Part shown: positions 2,825-48,245 of the stretch, in pieces
Position numbering within the stretch: position 1 is the first letter of the stretch
How the letters are laid out: the number at the start of each line of letters is the position of its first letter
NCBI GenBank assembly: GCA_023145375.1
Contig: JAGLDY010000012.1
Coordinates: forward strand, 45,861 to 109,860
Direction of reading: 5' to 3'
From: Candidatus Sabulitectum sp.
GTDB taxonomy: Bacteria > Fermentibacterota > Fermentibacteria > Fermentibacterales > JCC-6
DNA: 64,000 bases
Translations under genes and position numbers: made by a program
Notes under the pieces: model-generated
The model's database searches: none
Seen by the model: only the letters and a program-made list of their open reading frames with translations
Told to the model about the DNA's origin: nothing

Positions 2825-3164
2825 ACCCCTGGACGGGGTTCTTCTGCTGATGATACTTACAGTGGCTCTGTTCTGGAGCCAGTGCGACCGGGAGCACGGA
2901 ACAAAACCGGTGAGCCTCAGAATAGTCACATCGAATACTGACGACACGCTGAGCCTTTCCAGGGACACAGTGGTAGTAATGGAGCATCTTACAGTGGAGA
3001 TAAGAAACGAAACCGCCGCTATCACCCGTTCAGACTGTCGGACTCAGCAGTGTGTACGGACTGGTTTTATCACAAAACCGGGGCAGATGTCTGCCTGCAT
3101 GCCGAATGGGATATGGATCGAGATACTCGGTTCCGAGAAAACAACCGATGTTATCAGTTACTGA
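2802..3164 (+). CDS. NusG-domain-II-like small membrane/lipoprotein
   Basis: Motif DCRTQQCVRTGFITKPGQMSACMPNGIWIEI resembles NusG_II (DUF1312) proteins, which commonly sit next to ApbE. N-terminal hydrophobic anchor. Overlaps the amrS stop. Confidence 0.45.
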   Translation: MSIREMFKPLDGVLLLMILTVALFWSQCDREHGTKPVSLRIVTSNTDDTLSLSRDTVVVMEHLTVEIRNETAAITRSDCRTQQCVRTGFITKPGQMSACMPNGIWIEILGSEKTTDVISY

Positions 3165-3803
3165 TCAGAAAGCTGTTTTCAACTCTCCCCATGTGGTTGC
3201 ATCGAGGCTCTCTAAAGCGGGGGAAACTGCTATAAAGTAGTTTGACTGCCCTTCGCCGGGTATCCAGGGCTCCCAGAGGATGAAGTCATGGGTAAAAAAA
3301 CTGTGTGCTACTTCAGAGTTGTTGTCATCGCTGATGATGGAAGGCCAGCCTCCAGAGCTTAATTCTGTATTGGCCAGGACCCAGAAGTTTGTATTCACCA
3401 TCAATGGTGTAGAGTAAATAGTAAAAACAGGAGCATAGTGTGTTGCGTTAAGGCGGGTCTGATCCAGTTGAACAAGAGGAGCCTGAGGATCTCCGTTCCA
3501 TATCTCGCTGTAGAAATCAGAGGTGTCCCATGGATATTGTGAATCGTGGTAAAACCATGTTTCAGTTTCCAGTAATGCTGCTCCGCCACTCCAACCGGGC
3601 ATAAAATCTTCCAGGTTGAACCAGACACCCTTATAAATGCCCTCGTAAGCGAACCACTCCGGGGTTCCATTGTCGTATCTTAACCAGTCACTGTCGGCTC
3701 TGTTCACCGGGCTCAGATCAATTGCGCTTTGAGCAAAAGAGGCTGCTGAACAAGCAACCGTCAGCACTATCAGTATTATTTTCATACCGTACCTTCCATC
3801 CAT
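3165..3803 (-). CDS. secreted hypothetical protein
   Basis: Signal peptide MKIILIVLTVACSAASFAQSA. AGGAGG lies 10 nt upstream of the ATG at 3803. The alternative ATG at 3785 also has an SD. Confidence 0.5.
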   Translation of the reverse strand: MDGRYGMKIILIVLTVACSAASFAQSAIDLSPVNRADSDWLRYDNGTPEWFAYEGIYKGVWFNLEDFMPGWSGGAALLETETWFYHDSQYPWDTSDFYSEIWNGDPQAPLVQLDQTRLNATHYAPVFTIYSTPLMVNTNFWVLANTELSSGGWPSIISDDNNSEVAHSFFTHDFILWEPWIPGEGQSNYFIAVSPALESLDATTWGELKTAF

Positions 3804-40943: not shown

Positions 40944-42100
40944 CTGAAAAGCGAGTAGACCTCTTCAGAGTGTCGCTGGGTATAGTGGCTGTTCTTATCA
41001 TTGCCGGGATCATGAAGCTCGGGGCCAGTATCTTTGTTAAGATCGCTATCTCCCTGTTTTTCGCTCTTCTGATATCTCCCGCAGTAAAGTCTACAACTGC
41101 ATGGATAGACAAACTTCTCAGAAGTATCTTCAAAAAGTACAGAAGAAGAAGTGACAAAAGTCAATCTGAACTTGCAGATGTTATTGGAACTGCCCTGGTT
41201 CTGGTCATGGCTCTCGCTATAGCCTCCGTCTTCTTCTTTCTCATATACGGTACAATGAGCATGCTTCTTGGCAGGAAGGACGACATGATAAGCAATGTTG
41301 TCAACCCTGTTGTCACTTTTGTTGAAAGTGCCCAATCCGACTGGATCCCTGAAATGTACAGTCGTCTTGGTATGGAAGGAGTTGAGCAGATCACTCTACC
41401 AGAAGATTCGCTGAAGGTCACGACTCCACTGTCTCTCAATGAACCGACAATCTCCTTTAGATCCATGGTTCCCACCGCCGCAGGACTTGTGGGATCTCTT
41501 TCCAGCGGGATATTTAACGGTGTCATCATTATTATGCTCACTGTATTCATGGTGAACGGAAGAAGAATATTCTCAAAAAAAATAAAGAAGATGGATTCTG
41601 AGACCCATGAAAAGTATCAGGCCCTGGTGAGCCAGGTGGAACGGATCCCAAGAAAATACCTCTTTGCAAAGCTGATCACGAGTGCTTTGACCGGTCTATT
41701 GATTTGTGTTTCCCTTCTCGTTATGGGTTTTCAGTTCGAAGAGTCTTTCATATGGGGAATGACTGCAATGGTCTTCAATTTTGTACCCTTCTTCGGATCT
41801 CTTATAGCGGGAGTAATGATCGCCTTGTATGCCATGTCAGTTCAGGGACTGCATGCAGGTCTTATAGCTGCAACCTCAGTGCTGATAATAAATAACATAG
41901 TTTCCAATGTAATAGAACCCAACTACTTCGGAGATGTACTTCCCATCGGAAAGGTCACAATACTTCTTTGTGTGATAATATGGGGCTATCTCTGGGGTCT
42001 ACTGGGTATTTTCCTTGCAGTTCCGCTTACTATCATTATTAAAGTTCTACTGGAACACACAACTGGAAGAAATTCCCTGGTTGTATTTATGGAGGTTTGA
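40940..42100 (+). CDS. AI-2E family transporter (UPF0118/PerM-like)
   Basis: 8-TM topology, length 386 aa, and a C-terminal GIFLAVPLTIIIKVL motif typical of the family. The start overlaps the upstream stop. Confidence 0.75.
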   Translation: MTEKRVDLFRVSLGIVAVLIIAGIMKLGASIFVKIAISLFFALLISPAVKSTTAWIDKLLRSIFKKYRRRSDKSQSELADVIGTALVLVMALAIASVFFFLIYGTMSMLLGRKDDMISNVVNPVVTFVESAQSDWIPEMYSRLGMEGVEQITLPEDSLKVTTPLSLNEPTISFRSMVPTAAGLVGSLSSGIFNGVIIIMLTVFMVNGRRIFSKKIKKMDSETHEKYQALVSQVERIPRKYLFAKLITSALTGLLICVSLLVMGFQFEESFIWGMTAMVFNFVPFFGSLIAGVMIALYAMSVQGLHAGLIAATSVLIINNIVSNVIEPNYFGDVLPIGKVTILLCVIIWGYLWGLLGIFLAVPLTIIIKVLLEHTTGRNSLVVFMEV

Positions 42101-42101
42101 T

Positions 42102-44414
42102 ATGAATTTCATGATACTGGTAATGGCCCTCACGAGTGGAATCCTAAATCTAAACTGGTCAGCTGAGAATTCTCCGGAAATAATCAGAACACCGCTTGGA
42201 GACAGAATTTCTATCACAGGAATACCTTCAGTGGGGAAACCCGGGGCTCCGTTGTTTCCTCAGGTGCCCCTTACCGCGGCTCTGCCTCAAGGTGCCGTTG
42301 CTGACAGCGTTAGGATCGTAAGTACAAGTTCAATCCCGCTGTCATTCAATTACCACCCAATGCCGGCTCAGATGGGCGTGCCAATATCCAGACCTGAGGA
42401 TTTCAGGTTGACAGCTGCTGATCCCCGGGCTTTTTCAACCCCGGTGAATGCCTCTGTTCATTTAACCGGACAGGGTAATCTCATGGGATATCCGGTGGCT
42501 GATCTGGTGCTTAATCCTATCACCTGGAATCCGGAAACAAAGGAACTCATCTGGACAGAGAGTATGGAACTTCAGATATACTACCATATTAACAGTACAA
42601 GCCAGGCAATACCCTCAAGGGGTATTACGGGTTCAGCCATTGCTTCCAGCATAGTATCCACCGCTGTATTGAACCCTGCAGATATTCCAGTTGCTCCAGC
42701 TTCATCCACAACAGACCTGCCATGGGGTGAATATCTAATAATTGCAGATGATGGCCTTGCGGCAGCATTTGAACCACTTGCAGAATGGAAAACTCAAAAG
42801 GGTATTCCAGCGAAAATAGTCGAGATGTCCTTTATCACCAACCAATACTCAGGCGTTGATGATGCTCAGAAGCTAAGATTCTTTCTCTATGAAATCTTCC
42901 AGGACTCTCCGCCTACCTATGTTCTTCTTGCAGGAGATACTCCAGGAGTTCCCCACAGGAACTGTTACGCCACGGCAGAAGGTTACACTGGTGATCCTTC
43001 CGCTGACCTTTACTACCAGGATATGAATGACACCGCTGCCGGAGTGGATGCATGGAACCTTGACGGTGATGATATCTGGGGTGAACTAAATGGTAACGAC
43101 AATATGGATTACCATCCGGATTACATTCTGGGTCGTGCTTCGGTTGAAACCGTAACTGAGGCAAATGCCTTTGTCAACAAAGTTATTGCCTGGGAGAACA
43201 GCCCGGACACGGATGACTGGTACAATGCAATGGGCTTTACAACGGAGGTACTCTGGAGCAGTCCGTACTGTCCAGGCTCAGCAGGGAAGGAGAAGGTTGA
43301 TAACCTTTACACCCCTTCATCCTGGACAATAACAAAGCTGTACCAATCCTCAGGTTCTCAGAGCTATACAGCTACGATGGCCATGCTGAATACTGGAATG
43401 CAGCTCGTGAACCATGCTGGACACGGCAGTCAGTCTTCGGTTTCCATCGGCTCCGGCTCTCTGGGCACATCCGAATTCATGGGGCTTACCAATGTCTCCC
43501 AGAGAGGTCGTCCTACTATCTGGAACACCATTGCCTGTCTTTCCGGTTCATTTGATACAGGTACCTGTCTTGCAGAAGCATGGATCAGGTCTCCAGGAGG
43601 AGGAGGTTTCTGCATCATGAACACCCGTTATGGTTGGGGAGAGCCTGCTGAACCTGGTGATCAGTGGAGTGAACTGGTGGACCAGGAGTTCTTTGCAAAC
43701 TTCTTTGTGGATGATATGTACCTGCTAGGCGTTGCTTACATGATGGCAAAAGATGACTTTATTTCACTGATACCGTCTGATACGCATTACGATTGGATAG
43801 CCAAGAGCAACACTCTGTTTGGCGACCCTGAGCTGCCTATGTACTCAGCAGTTCCAGAGGAAATGGAGATTGGAGATTTTTTCCTTTGCGAAGGTGATGA
43901 GAATCTTACTGTCAATGTTACTTCCGGTGGCTCACCACTGCAGAATGCCAGGGTATGCCTTATGCAGGGAGATTGGGAAGCTCCTGTCACTTATGCGGTC
44001 GGTGTGACAGATGCTACCGGTTATGTAACTCTATCCTTTGATTATCTGCCTGCAACTCCCAATCAAGTCAGATTAACTGTCTGGGCGAGGGATCATGTTC
44101 TTCTTACAGGAATGCATGATGTAGGCAACATGGGGGTGGGAGACGAGAGTCAGCAGACCCTTCCAACGCTCTCATTGATATCTTCAAACCCGGTACAGGG
44201 AACAGCCTCTATTGGCTGGTCAATCCCTGAATCAGCGAATGGGAACATTTCCATTATCGACCTTACCGGTAGAACTGTAATTACTCAGGAGCTTCAGGGG
44301 CTTGAAGGTCTCTTTATATGGCAGACCCAGGACAGTCCTGCAGGGCTTTACTTCGTAAGGATGACAACTTCCACAGGTGATATCCTTAGTACCAGCATGG
44401 TTGTGGTTCGCTGA
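42102..44414 (+). CDS. peptidase C25 (gingipain-like) with a T9SS C-terminal sorting domain
   Basis: GGAGGT SD. Signal peptide. Catalytic His in VNHAGHGSQ and Cys in WNTIACLSGSF. CTD IIDLTGRTV...GLYFVRM. Confidence 0.8.
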   Translation: MNFMILVMALTSGILNLNWSAENSPEIIRTPLGDRISITGIPSVGKPGAPLFPQVPLTAALPQGAVADSVRIVSTSSIPLSFNYHPMPAQMGVPISRPEDFRLTAADPRAFSTPVNASVHLTGQGNLMGYPVADLVLNPITWNPETKELIWTESMELQIYYHINSTSQAIPSRGITGSAIASSIVSTAVLNPADIPVAPASSTTDLPWGEYLIIADDGLAAAFEPLAEWKTQKGIPAKIVEMSFITNQYSGVDDAQKLRFFLYEIFQDSPPTYVLLAGDTPGVPHRNCYATAEGYTGDPSADLYYQDMNDTAAGVDAWNLDGDDIWGELNGNDNMDYHPDYILGRASVETVTEANAFVNKVIAWENSPDTDDWYNAMGFTTEVLWSSPYCPGSAGKEKVDNLYTPSSWTITKLYQSSGSQSYTATMAMLNTGMQLVNHAGHGSQSSVSIGSGSLGTSEFMGLTNVSQRGRPTIWNTIACLSGSFDTGTCLAEAWIRSPGGGGFCIMNTRYGWGEPAEPGDQWSELVDQEFFANFFVDDMYLLGVAYMMAKDDFISLIPSDTHYDWIAKSNTLFGDPELPMYSAVPEEMEIGDFFLCEGDENLTVNVTSGGSPLQNARVCLMQGDWEAPVTYAVGVTDATGYVTLSFDYLPATPNQVRLTVWARDHVLLTGMHDVGNMGVGDESQQTLPTLSLISSNPVQGTASIGWSIPESANGNISIIDLTGRTVITQELQGLEGLFIWQTQDSPAGLYFVRMTTSTGDILSTSMVVVR

Positions 44415-44429
44415 GAGAAAGGTAACGAA

Positions 44430-44846
44430 TTGAAGGAACTTAAAAGAGAGAACGGCCTGGTAATTCTCAGGTTTGACAGGGGCGAGGATTTCATGGGAAG
44501 TCTTTCATCCTGGTGTATTGAGAATAATGTTCAGTCCGCCGGGATCCTCTGCGGAATAGGTATGCTTGAGAACGTGGAGATCGGGAGATACAACGGCACT
44601 GATTACACCAGAATGACCGAAAGTGAGTCGTGTGAGATCCTTTCTCTTCAAGGGAGTGTTTCCATGAAGGAAGGTGCTCCGTTTGTTCACCTTCACGTCT
44701 CATTTGCCGATCACGATTTCAAAGCGATTGGCGGACACCTTTTCAACGGGAAAGTTTCCATGACAATAGAGCTTGTTGTGGCTCCAATGTCCCCGGGGCT
44801 TGTAAGGAAGCCTGTAGGTGGGGTTTTCTGGCAGATGGATTCCTGA
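44430..44846 (+). CDS. PPC/DUF296-domain protein
   Basis: DUF296 signature across about 120 aa (LRFDRGEDFMGSLSSWCIENNVQSAGILCGIGMLENVEIG ... HLHVSFADHDFKAIGGHL). Confidence 0.7.
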   Translation: MKELKRENGLVILRFDRGEDFMGSLSSWCIENNVQSAGILCGIGMLENVEIGRYNGTDYTRMTESESCEILSLQGSVSMKEGAPFVHLHVSFADHDFKAIGGHLFNGKVSMTIELVVAPMSPGLVRKPVGGVFWQMDS

Positions 44847-44895
44847 AGGCTTGACGCGGAGAAGGCTGATATTATGATACGCTGGCTTTGCAGTG

Positions 44896-44971
44896 GGGCT
44901 GTAGCTCAGTTGGTATGAGCACTTGACTGGCAGTCAAGGGGTCGCGGGTTCGATCCCCGCCAGCTCCACCA
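44896..44971 (+). tRNA. tRNA-Ala (anticodon GGC)
   Basis: Cloverleaf with a 7-bp acceptor stem that includes the G3:U70 alanine identity pair. Anticodon loop CU-GGC-AG. T-loop TTCGATC. CCA is encoded. Confidence 0.9.
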
Positions 44972-44974
44972 GAT

Positions 44975-45010
44975 GAACCGCTGCTCTCAACAAGTAGCGG
45001 TTCGCTTTTA
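44975..45010 (+). terminator. intrinsic terminator after tRNA-Ala
   Basis: GAACCGCT-(13-nt loop)-AGCGGTTC followed by GCTTTT. Confidence 0.55.
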
Positions 45011-45145
45011 AGTGGCGCAGTAAGGGGTTGCACCCGGGAGTGCTATTGTCTATCTTACCTGCTCCGAACCAGAGGAATTCAGGCAGGAAATCGTTTATAG
45101 ATGGTAGTGTTGCAAGTAGTAACGCATAAATAACAGGAGGAAGAG

Positions 45146-45430
45146 ATGACCAAGGCAGATATCGTTGCCAACATTTCAGACGAGACGGGTCTCACCAAGA
45201 AGGAAGTTGCCTCAGTTGTCAACCAGTTCTTTGTGGAAGTAAGAAGCGCCCTTTTCAATCACGACCATATTGAAATCCGTGGATTCGGTACATTCAAGGT
45301 TGTTGAAAGAAACCCCAGAATGGCCAGAAACCCCCATACAAAAGAGCCCGTTGCAGTTCCCCGCAGACATGTACCTTTCTTCAAATTTTCAAAGACAGTG
45401 AAGAACAAGGTTGCAAAGGCGGAGAAGTAG
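45146..45430 (+). CDS. HU/IHF-family nucleoid-associated DNA-binding protein
   Basis: MTKADIVANIS...VEIRGFGTFKV...PRMARNPHTKEPVAVPRRHVPFFK beta-arm motif. 94 aa. Confidence 0.9.
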   Translation: MTKADIVANISDETGLTKKEVASVVNQFFVEVRSALFNHDHIEIRGFGTFKVVERNPRMARNPHTKEPVAVPRRHVPFFKFSKTVKNKVAKAEK

Positions 45431-45526
45431 ATGCCAAACGGAAAAAAGCGTAAGCGGAAGAAAATAGCGACACATAAACGGAAGAAAAGACGTCGCGCCA
45501 ACAGACATAAGAAGAAGATCCGCTAA
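45431..45526 (+). CDS. 31-aa ultra-basic peptide, candidate ribosomal protein bS22-like. It is below the 60-aa ORF-track cutoff, so it is not in the supplied list.
   Basis: MPNGKKRKRKKIATHKRKKRRRANRHKKKIR. The ATG immediately follows the HU stop. 65% Lys/Arg. Matches the composition and length of bS22-type peptides. Confidence 0.5.
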   Translation: MPNGKKRKRKKIATHKRKKRRRANRHKKKIR

Positions 45527-45529
45527 GCT

Positions 45530-46003
45530 TTGAGAATAGCTGTTCTTTCTGATACTCATATCCCGGCAAGGCTTCAAAACTTGCCGGGACTTGTTTATGA
45601 AGCCTGCGCCGGCACTGATCTTATCATTCATGCGGGGGATATTGAGGACAAGGATGTTATCAATGACCTTCTCAGGCTGGCACCTGTAAAAGCCGTTCGC
45701 GGTAACATGGATTATGAAAATTACCCTGAGGCACTCACCCTGCACTTCTTGGGTTTCACAATCGCAATTGCCCACGGAAGCGGTTCATACGAGAATGTAA
45801 GGCAGAGGATGAAGAAAAAGTTCCAGAGCATAAATCCTGATATTATCATCCACGGGCATACCCACATATTCCACTGGAAAAAAGAACGCAATGTCTGGTT
45901 CCTCTGCCCGGGAGCTGTATCCAACCCTGCAGGAAGCCGTTCAATGGCCATCCTGACACTGGAAAGGAAAAAAGCACCCCAGGTGGAGAAAATCGTATTC
46001 TGA
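45530..46003 (+). CDS. metallophosphoesterase, YfcE/MJ0936-like
   Basis: TTG start. Motifs MRIAVLSDTHIP, HAGDI and GHTH. 157 aa. Confidence 0.85.
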   Translation: MRIAVLSDTHIPARLQNLPGLVYEACAGTDLIIHAGDIEDKDVINDLLRLAPVKAVRGNMDYENYPEALTLHFLGFTIAIAHGSGSYENVRQRMKKKFQSINPDIIIHGHTHIFHWKKERNVWFLCPGAVSNPAGSRSMAILTLERKKAPQVEKIVF

Positions 46004-46053: not shown

Positions 46054-46129
<76 letters not shown>

Positions 46130-46327
46130 TTATCTGGCTTTACACAAAAGTTGGGGCTTCACAGACGTGAGCAATAGTTAGTATTCAATTTCGATTTGCC
46201 ATATGAATTTAGATCATAAGTGATGAATTCTTGTATCAAGGCCAGTTCTGCACATATTTACTTTCAACAGAATAGTATGTATTTTCAACTCTTATTGAAA
46301 GATCACATCACCTTCGTAGGGAGAGTT

Positions 46328-46678
46328 ATGTCAATAATCTATCTTCTAATCCTCAAAGTAATTTTAAGTCAGGTGTCAGCAGATATAGATACCGGAAGTA
46401 TATGTGGCACTGTGACTGATACTAGAGGAAACCCTCTAGTTGGAGCAACGGTTATGATTGTTGGAACTGCATACGGTGCCATGACAGATCCATTTGGTTT
46501 GTATGGAATAGAAAATCTGGCAGCAGGAAAGTATACAGTTGAAGCCAGAATGGTTGGAATGTTAGCGAATACTGTGGATGGAGTAGAGGTAGTTGCAGAT
46601 TGCATAACGACTCAGGGTTTCTCCCTAGCCACATATGGTTTATCAGCTGACGATATACCAGTATTAATCAAGATCTGA
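46328..46678 (+). CDS. small secreted protein with a carboxypeptidase-regulatory-like (CarbopepD_reg_2-like) domain
   Basis: GGGAGAG SD, then ATG at 46328. Signal peptide. ICGTVTDTRGNPLVGATVMIVGT...GKYTVEARMVG beta-sandwich signature. Confidence 0.55.
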   Translation: MSIIYLLILKVILSQVSADIDTGSICGTVTDTRGNPLVGATVMIVGTAYGAMTDPFGLYGIENLAAGKYTVEARMVGMLANTVDGVEVVADCITTQGFSLATYGLSADDIPVLIKI

Positions 46679-46679
46679 T

Positions 46680-48245
46680 ATGAGCAGACAATCACCTGCA
46701 CATTGCCTGAAAATTTTGACATTTATAACCCTGGTGTGCTTGTTTTTTCCTCTACAAGCCCATGGAGACACATCAAGTCTGACAGCAACACAAACAAACT
46801 GGGCAGGTGGATTACCACATTCCAGACCGTATGTTGCCTTGTGGTCGGATATGTTCGAATCATCATATGCAGTCGATTGGTCGGATACCCCAGGTTCTCT
46901 AACTATTGTAAGTGGATTTGAGAGGAAGATTATTTGGTACGGAGGAAGTTTATCAATAACGCACTTCACTCCCTTTGATGTTGATTCCGATGGTGATCTT
47001 GATATGTTTTTTCTGCAAAATACCGCCCAGGTTGGATGGTTGGAGAATTTCGATTGTGAACAGGGTTGGGTATTACATGAAATAGAGCACCCAATCTATC
47101 AGCCCAAAGCACTTGTTGCAAATGATTTTGATGGAAATGGATTCCCTGATCTAGCTGTAAGCTCAAGACAAGATGGACTCCTGATGCTTTATCAGGTGTC
47201 TGAAGACAGATGGGAAATCGAGCACATTGACAGGCTATTTTATAGCGGTTGGGATCTGGACACTGCAGACATTAACAAGGATGGAGTGGATGATCTGGTC
47301 GGTATTTCATGGGTACCGAATTACATCTGCTGGTGGGAAAACCCGGTCTCCATGCTTGAGAATTGGAATCCTCATATCATTGCTGACCTAGAGATTGCCA
47401 GAAACTCAATCTTGATCGATGACTTCGATGGAGATGGCCTGACTGAGGTATGTGCCTTTTCCCCAAGCAATACATGGGCTGGTGTAAATTTTTTTGTACA
47501 GGGTGATAGCTACAGAGAACCCTGGAAAGAATTACGGTTTGGTGATTGGACAGATGACGTCAACCATGTTGCTGTTCTGCAAAGATACGATGATGATAAC
47601 CAACATACTTTTAGCGGCTTGGCTATCGGTAAACAAGGGCACAATTCATCGGAATATGGATTCTTCATTCTTAATTCCGAATACGTACGTCAGCATACAC
47701 TTTCTCTTGGAAGAGAGTCTCCACAAACGGCTTTTATTCGTACGGGTGATATTGATGGGGATGCCGATATGGACATTTGCATAAATGCCCGCTGTTTTGA
47801 GAATGTTGAAGATAAATCCACCTGGATTCCGCACAACTATCTTGATAATGTTTCGACTAACATGCAAATTTCAAATCCAGTGTGTGTTGACCTTGATGGC
47901 AATGGGACCGACGAACTGGTTTATATAGAATCTGGTTCTATCTGGTTTGTTGATCATTCAATGCTTGTTTCCAGGGGTGAACTTACTTCACATTACTTTG
48001 AGCCCCAGGAGGTTCAGGAATGGAAACGCTTATCCTGGGAGTCAGAAGAACCCAGTGGTACTTCAGTATCAATGTTCTTCAGATACAACCGGCAATCTGA
48101 TTGGATAGGACCTTTCAGAGAATCCATAGATTTGACTGAGTATGAATCAGAGGGGATTAACCAGTTTCAGTACAGGGTGGTTCTTGAATCAGATTATCCA
48201 ACAGTATCACCCGTTCTTCATAGCATTACTGTGGAATGGGAGTAA
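46680..48245 (+). CDS. FG-GAP repeat (integrin-alpha-like beta-propeller) secreted protein
   Basis: Signal peptide. At least 6 FG-GAP Ca-binding loops (DVDSDGDLD, NDFDGNGFPD, DINKDGVDD, DDFDGDGLTE, GDIDGDADMD, VDLDGNGTDE). Confidence 0.75.
   Translation: MSRQSPAHCLKILTFITLVCLFFPLQAHGDTSSLTATQTNWAGGLPHSRPYVALWSDMFESSYAVDWSDTPGSLTIVSGFERKIIWYGGSLSITHFTPFDVDSDGDLDMFFLQNTAQVGWLENFDCEQGWVLHEIEHPIYQPKALVANDFDGNGFPDLAVSSRQDGLLMLYQVSEDRWEIEHIDRLFYSGWDLDTADINKDGVDDLVGISWVPNYICWWENPVSMLENWNPHIIADLEIARNSILIDDFDGDGLTEVCAFSPSNTWAGVNFFVQGDSYREPWKELRFGDWTDDVNHVAVLQRYDDDNQHTFSGLAIGKQGHNSSEYGFFILNSEYVRQHTLSLGRESPQTAFIRTGDIDGDADMDICINARCFENVEDKSTWIPHNYLDNVSTNMQISNPVCVDLDGNGTDELVYIESGSIWFVDHSMLVSRGELTSHYFEPQEVQEWKRLSWESEEPSGTSVSMFFRYNRQSDWIGPFRESIDLTEYESEGINQFQYRVVLESDYPTVSPVLHSITVEWE

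Follow-up and report, generated by a model that had tools for sequence, protein, structure and literature searches.

An open reading frame of 31 codons was identified at positions 45431-45526 (+ strand) of the window, the 64,000-nucleotide stretch of Candidatus Sabulitectum DNA analyzed here. Its ATG (45431) directly abuts the TAG stop codon of an HU gene (45428-45430; TAGATG), its own stop codon is the TAA at 45524-45526, and three nucleotides (GCT) separate the latter from the TTG codon at 45530 that begins a YfcE-type metallophosphoesterase gene. Inspection of the sequence and of the ORF list thus bears out to the base what the sequence-only reading had described: an ultra-basic 31-aa ORF that begins at the base after the HU stop and ends 3 nt before the next gene. 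The peptide, MPNGKKRKRKKIATHKRKKRRRANRHKKKIR, contains 11 lysines, 8 arginines and 2 histidines but no aspartate or glutamate, and its pI is computed as about 12. Its combined lysine and arginine fraction (0.61) ranks first among the 786 window ORFs of at least 25 aa, the runner-up standing at 0.34; its basicity is an extreme outlier, far beyond chance given the window's composition. From PDB matches found with phmmer, orthologous ORFs and a bias toward synonymous differences (see below), the ORF is assigned as the gene for bS22, an ultra-basic protein of the 30S ribosomal subunit.

The bS22 gene appears to be the middle member of a three-gene unit, HU-bS22-yfcE. The first gene (45146-45430, +) encodes a 94-aa HU/IHF-family DNA-binding protein (Pfam Bac_DNA_binding, E 1.5e-30; NCBIfam IHF/HU models were also matched, but under their curated cut-offs). 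By inspection, a Shine-Dalgarno-like AGGAGG (45135-45140, +) lies 5 nt before its start codon. The third gene (45530-46003, +; TTG start) encodes a 157-aa YfcE-family metallophosphoesterase, recognized by TIGR00040 (99.9 bits, cut-off 56.25) and by Pfam Metallophos_2 (E 3.4e-32). A second Shine-Dalgarno-like element, GGAG (45421-45424, +), sits within the final HU codons and precedes the bS22 ATG by 6 nt. Upstream, the unit is bounded by a terminator-like hairpin (44974-45004, +) that follows a tRNA-Ala(GGC) gene (44895-44971), and downstream by a tRNA-Arg(CCG) gene (46054-46129, +). A search of the region against Rfam returned the two tRNAs only and no RNA element that might account for it; 16S and 23S rRNA genes are absent from the window.

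Farther out, the window encodes a 799-aa gingipain-type cysteine peptidase (42015-44414, +; Peptidase_C25, E 1.5e-52). Its match to the C25 propeptide is weaker (20.6 bits, gathering score 22) and it carries a C-terminal T9SS sorting domain (Por_Secre_tail); this combination presumably fits an organism of the FCB group. The other neighbors, a PCC-domain protein (44430-44846, +; Pfam PF03479), a CarboxypepD_reg-domain protein (46220-46678, +) and an FG-GAP repeat protein (46680-48245, +), have no visible tie to the HU-bS22-yfcE unit.

When MPNGKKRKRKKIATHKRKKRRRANRHKKKIR was compared with all PDB chains (single-sequence phmmer, E up to 10), exactly three sequences matched, all of them bS22 proteins resolved in ribosomes and all aligned over their full length. 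These are chain 5 of 7JIL from Flavobacterium johnsoniae (7jil_5; E 7.7e-9, 25 of 29 residues identical, residues 1-29 aligned to 1-29), chain 10 of 9I5V from Porphyromonas gingivalis (9i5v_10; E 3e-7), deposited as "AURKAIP1/COX24 domain-containing protein", and chain V of 8FMW from Borrelia burgdorferi (8fmw_V; E 7.3e-7), deposited as "bS22". The bS22-like identity proposed from the sequence is therefore well supported, as is the accompanying remark that the length and Lys/Arg content fit this family. Similarity of composition only, the pitfall that had been foreseen for such a peptide, is not what was found. Residues P2, G4, A13, T14, H15, A23, N24 and H26, none of them lysine or arginine, are identical in the F. 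johnsoniae protein; because of these identities, and because the significant matches are full length, the resemblance is more than compositional. An alignment of 18 sequences, two of them PDB chains and the others taken from metagenome proteins and the fetched loci, contains 14 invariant columns (M1, P2, G4, K6, R7, K11, H15, K16, K18, K19, R25, H26, K27 and K28), and the conserved pattern M-P-x-G ... [ST]-H-K ... R-H-K-K is present in MPNGKKRKRKKIATHKRKKRRRANRHKKKIR. AlphaFold2, run on the single sequence, returned one helix spanning residues 4-30 (mean pLDDT 93.5), which, the bend aside, agrees with the single bent helix of bS22 but is weak evidence, K/R-rich 30-mers being readily modeled as helices.

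Family libraries were less sensitive. MPNGKKRKRKKIATHKRKKRRRANRHKKKIR matched no NCBIfam model, and in Pfam it reached 12.5 bits (E 0.14, profile positions 5-29 of 33) with COX24_C (PF08213), under the gathering score of 23. The failure of these libraries to catch the peptide may partly explain why pipelines miss the ORF. The bL34, bL36 and THX families gave no match at E<=1 in either library. Actinobacterial bS22 chains (mycobacterial, Cutibacterium) were not matched in the PDB at E<=10, whether the query was the single sequence or profile A1. Since profile A1 includes the F. johnsoniae and Borrelia sequences, its strong PDB matches are circular and were not counted as evidence; it also aligned KIKKHKLRKRRKANR to kKiatHKrKKRrRanR of an mS38 chain (8a22_BC) at E 0.84. 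At the level of sequence, the kinship proposed in the sequence-only reading thus held for the Bacteroidota type (7JIL, 9I5V) and not for the actinobacterial one, to which no sequence similarity was seen. The "Rv2056-like" label attached to the proposal looks wrong, Rv2056c presumably being rpsN2.

Conservation of the ORF was examined in 80 loci drawn from GTDB contigs (one genome per species) with the HU protein as anchor. In all six loci whose HU is nearest to that of the window (L001-L006; four titled Fermentibacteria, Fermentibacteraceae or Aegiribacteria and two "uncultured bacterium"), the ORF is kept in the same frame and place after HU. Its spacing from the HU stop is 0 nt in the window, L001 and L002 and 1 nt in L003 and L005; it stays within 0-1 nt throughout L001-L005 and reaches about 10 nt in L006. 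The gene order HU, bS22, YfcE-type phosphoesterase is likewise conserved among the nearest loci: in L001-L005 a TTG follows the bS22 stop by 0-3 nt, and in L006 the YfcE match starts at roughly the end of the bS22 ORF. Relative to the window, the bS22 DNA of L002 shows 12 synonymous and no non-synonymous differences, so that the peptide is identical; the corresponding figures are 8 and 2 for L001, 13 and 2 for L003, and 18.5 and 3.5 for L005. Among close relatives pN is 0.00-0.05, against a pS ranging from 0.45 to saturation. That differences are nearly all synonymous argues decisively that the frame codes for protein and is strongly constrained by purifying selection; the check on frame conservation and Ka/Ks proposed at the outset thus came out in favor of the gene.

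In the full set, a bS22 ORF was found downstream of HU and on the same strand in 69 of the 80 HU-like loci; this count comprises 65 loci with the strict motif, two variants (L004 and L006) and two that are cut by contig ends (L027 and L061). The 69 include loci titled Fermentibacterota, Latescibacterota, Zixibacteria, Gemmatimonadetes (MAGs), plain "bacterium" and, in many cases, Flavobacteriales. At least one of the 11 loci without bS22 (L019) is a second HU-like locus on the same chromosome as L010, where the two genes are linked. HU was found at about 3001-3290 in most of L001-L080. Outside the nearest loci the gap measures 15-556 nt; the Flavobacteriales have A/T-rich spacers of 22-556 nt. 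In six Latescibacterota loci (L007-L010, L012 and L018) bS22 occupies positions 3311-3406 and the HU frame runs to 3342, so that the bS22 ATG lies 32 nt inside the open frame continuing from the HU match and the genes would overlap, unless HU ends earlier. Two contigs carry titles at odds with their bS22. The peptide of L071 (CAXPPC010000007.1, titled Henriciella pelagia) is identical to that of L046, and the peptide of L076 (CALQBB020000075.1, titled Polynucleobacter meluiroseus) to those of L037, L044 and L049, these twins being titled Crocinitomicaceae or Flavobacteriales. Henriciella and Polynucleobacter are proteobacterial genera, and both contigs are probably mis-binned.

Translation signals differ among these groups. 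In the 20-nt strings upstream of the bS22 start, GGAG or GGGAG is found in the Fermentibacterota and Latescibacterota loci and in a group of loci with GTG starts. An SD-like element is absent from the corresponding strings of Flavobacteriales loci, which are A/T-rich, in keeping with the SD-independence published for Bacteroidia (PMC7797042, PMC13000457). The bS22 start, at the conserved M/V/L-P-x-G position, is GTG (12) or TTG (2) in 14 loci, among them L003, L016, L021-L026, L029-L031, L033 and L034; the Borrelia gene (bb0822), previously unannotated, has a GUG start as well (PMC10618245). Such starts, besides the short length, would lead gene-callers to miss the gene. In the window, the adjoining TAG and ATG and the GGAG 6 nt upstream make translational coupling of bS22 to HU likely, termination-reinitiation being the most economical reading of this arrangement.

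The HU and metallophosphoesterase proteins are identical to the GenBank entries MCK5785373.1 and MCK5785374.1 of an uncultured Candidatus Sabulitectum sp. MAG. As these accessions are consecutive, evidently no CDS is annotated between the two genes, in indirect agreement with the description of the ORF as unannotated. An exact look-up showed MPNGKKRKRKKIATHKRKKRRRANRHKKKIR to be absent from a collection of 15 billion proteins; the 30-aa F. johnsoniae bS22 as deposited in 7JIL is also absent from it, so that the absence of MPNGKKRKRKKIATHKRKKRRRANRHKKKIR is uninformative about annotation. Apart from the PDB chain 8FMW_V, bS22 occurs in that collection only within mis-extended calls of 34-99 aa. 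Homology searches of the collection with a tandem-duplicated peptide as query retrieved over-long calls in this size range only, lacking informative names or taxonomy. An exhaustive phmmer search of 1.84 billion representatives gave 70 matches at E<=1e-3, all of them extended or read-through miscalls and therefore useless for taxonomy. The miscalls are named "hypothetical protein". Ultra-short ribosomal proteins are thus systematically under-represented in protein collections. Two of the calls, P0088 (57 aa, from a 32-kb ENA contig) and P0018 (48 aa), carry bS22 repeated in tandem, in one and a half to two copies (for example MPSGRKRLRQKMATHKRKKRLRKNRHMY followed by MPSGRKRLRQKMATHKRKKRLRKNRHKKK); the cause is either a duplication of the local sequence or an artefact of assembly. 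In a metagenome protein, P0077 (92 aa), the N-terminal part of HU is fused in frame to a complete bS22, probably through a deletion or an assembly artefact, though one that reflects the adjacency of the two genes.

Several other readings of the locus were weighed. A very short, low-complexity ORF that neither Pfam nor NCBIfam calls could be a chance product of the purine-rich spacer between HU and the phosphoesterase gene, its resemblance to bS22 being merely compositional. However, 25 of 29 residues, non-basic ones included, agree with F. johnsoniae bS22, the synonymous bias reaches 12:0 against the nearest relatives, and the ORF is retained across several phyla; we accord this reading virtually no probability, the PDB matches together with the synonymous differences excluding it. 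The antisense ORFs reported over the region are indeed present (80, 62 and 128 aa, at 45259-45501, 45381-45569 and 45389-45775, minus strand), and, being longer than 60 aa, they pass the cut-off that the bS22 ORF does not. That one of them should be the real gene is nonetheless barely conceivable: they overlap HU and the phosphoesterase gene, both with strong plus-strand Pfam support, and in L001-L005 they are broken or differ in extent. A sense strand rich in AAG, AAA and AGA codons, with 72% purines, automatically gives stop-free or stop-poor antisense frames. A different view would make the basic peptide a C-terminal tail of HU, reached by read-through of the TAG and resembling histone H1, as in mycobacterial HupB. 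In the window, L001 and L002 the two ORFs are indeed in the same frame (0-nt gap), and the P0077 protein joins them physically. Yet the frame relation varies (L003 and L005 have a 1-nt gap, the Latescibacterota loci overlap by 32 nt, and gaps of 15-556 nt occur elsewhere), a start codon proper to bS22 is always kept, with an SD-like element of its own outside the Flavobacteriales loci, and the ribosome structures of three species contain bS22 as a free peptide of 28-30 aa; a read-through tail is accordingly held to be highly improbable.

Two further readings accept the homology with bS22 and differ on the meaning of its linkage to HU. In one, the coupling would reflect a second, nucleoid-related or regulatory role, such as binding DNA or RNA together with HU or tying ribosome composition to the state of the nucleoid. 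Adjacency in 69 of 80 HU-like loci drawn from several FCB phyla would be in line with such a role, as would the conditional binding suggested by the loss of F. johnsoniae bS22 from 30S subunits and its presence in 70S complexes (PMC13000457). On the other hand, when loci were sampled from bS22-containing proteins rather than from HU, HU lay upstream in only one of four distinct contexts (dnaA did so in another, and the remaining two were unrelated), and joint expression of two small, abundant proteins that bind nucleic acids and are tied to growth rate would suffice to explain the linkage; a second role thus seems decidedly unlikely. The dnaA context was seen in two metagenome contigs (L083 and L084), where the bS22-containing call (2501-2647) lies directly downstream of dnaA (about 1030-2445). 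In the other reading, HU-bS22 would be an ancient co-expression module selected in the FCB group, either setting the dosage of bS22 through translational coupling to HU or serving a second nucleoid-associated role. It draws on the linkage taking a codon-adjacent form in Fermentibacterota-type loci, an overlapping form in Latescibacterota and a looser one in Flavobacteriales. We consider such a module unlikely; if real, it would tie the packaging of the chromosome directly, at the genetic level, to the composition of the ribosome, a connection of which no description was found in the literature searched.

We conclude that the ORF at 45431-45526 very probably encodes the bS22 protein of Candidatus Sabulitectum (Fermentibacterota) and acts as the known bS22 proteins do. 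It is a further member, from the phylum Fermentibacterota, of a known family with an ordinary mechanism. The closest systems are F. johnsoniae Fjoh_1533 (7JIL chain 5), P. gingivalis AAQ66340.1 (PMC12123416; 9I5V/9I5X) and Borrelia bb0822 (8FMW chain V). The window protein and these three are all 28-31 aa long, begin with MPxG, lack acidic residues and share the motif [KR]KRK..K..[ST]HKRKK..R.NRHKK. Its 61% K/R content and pI of about 12 compare with 61% K/R in Borrelia bS22 (PMC10618245) and a pI of 12.7 in F. johnsoniae bS22 (PMC7797042); the Borrelia and F. johnsoniae genes, too, had been missed or annotated as "hypothetical" (PMC10618245, PMC7797042). The window protein differs from the Bacteroidota type in having K10 where the latter has H10, and in a C-terminal -IR extension. 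The setting differs as well, with an SD-like element and codon adjacency to HU in the window and SD-less spacers in Flavobacteriales, as does the phylum, Fermentibacterota as opposed to the Bacteroidota and Spirochaetota from which bS22 has been structurally resolved.

More distant relationships are structural. The actinobacterial bS22 proteins (Mycobacterium smegmatis/tuberculosis, Cutibacterium acnes) occupy the same h44/h45 pocket and have the same helical fold and a similar size and basicity (PMC7797042, PMC10085706). The expectation attached to their function, stabilization of h44 and modulation of the aminoglycoside site (10.1101/2023.03.31.535098), is the same; their tie to the window protein is one of structure, taken from the literature (PMC7797042), and not of sequence. 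Mitochondrial mS38 (AURKAIP1/COX24; PF08213) and eukaryotic eL41 fill the corresponding rRNA pocket with a basic helix, mS38 being longer than bS22 and eL41 shorter (24 aa) and unbent (PMC10618245). The resemblance of the window protein to mS38 (the COX24_C and 8a22_BC scores given above) is below significance in both searches. The relation to actinobacterial bS22, mS38 and eL41 rests on published structural superpositions and is not supported by sequence. Other small, high-pI, ribosome-associated proteins (bL34, bL36, THX, bL37, bL38 and E. coli Sra, known as "S22" and encoded by rpsV) had no Pfam, NCBIfam or PDB match to the peptide, the PDB matches being to bS22 and mS38 only. E. coli Sra is not known to be related to bS22 by anything but the old name "S22".

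By analogy with the resolved structures, the 31-residue, mostly helical peptide would insert into the 30S subunit between helices h44 and h45 of 16S rRNA, near the decoding center, and its basic C-terminal tail would extend to the 50S subunit and touch 23S rRNA there (H68 or H70, according to the published structures). The 30-aa F. johnsoniae protein lies between h44 and h45 and contacts H70 of 23S rRNA (PMC7797042), and Borrelia bS22 contacts h2, h27, h44, h45 and H68 (PMC10618245). In P. gingivalis, bS22 is described as forming an extra intersubunit bridge beside the aminoglycoside site (PMC12123416), and removal of bS22 from M. smegmatis increases sensitivity to kanamycin (10.1101/2023.03.31.535098). 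The window protein may thus add an intersubunit contact and help shape the aminoglycoside pocket of h44. In F. johnsoniae, bS22 is lost from isolated 30S subunits and present in 70S initiation complexes (PMC13000457). At the level of expression, bS22 would be made from the second cistron of the HU-bS22-yfcE unit, with ribosomes that finish HU probably re-initiating on it. The ORF itself, its orthology to structurally verified bS22, the purifying selection acting on it and the conservation of the gene order are demonstrated by the present analysis; we infer for the product of 45431-45526 its translation, its incorporation into ribosomes, its binding site and its coupling to HU.

Candidatus Sabulitectum belongs to Candidatus Fermentibacterota, within the FCB group. 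The suggestion that bS22 might mark the lineage of the contig is weakly valid: this type of bS22 is spread over several phyla, namely Bacteroidota, Fermentibacterota, Spirochaetota (Borrelia) and MAGs titled Latescibacterota, Zixibacteria and Gemmatimonadetes, and is too widespread to serve as a marker by itself. The assignment to Ca. Sabulitectum rests on the neighboring proteins and on near-identical loci. Within the limited coverage of our literature search, no description was found of bS22 in Fermentibacterota or of its linkage to HU.

The gain is mainly one of annotation: the annotation deposited for this MAG lacks the gene of a ribosomal protein, and gene-callers overlook bS22 widely, which affects the ribosomal-protein inventories used to judge MAG completeness and to build phylogenies. 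A protein structurally verified in Bacteroidota and Spirochaetota is now extended, by sequence, to Fermentibacterota and to the MAGs titled Latescibacterota, Zixibacteria and Gemmatimonadetes, in agreement with the prediction of the Borrelia authors that further cases had gone unrecognized (PMC10618245). The recurrent HU-bS22 linkage provides a cheap synteny anchor for locating the gene, and this wider distribution bears on ideas about bS22, the stability of h44 and the access of aminoglycosides to their site.
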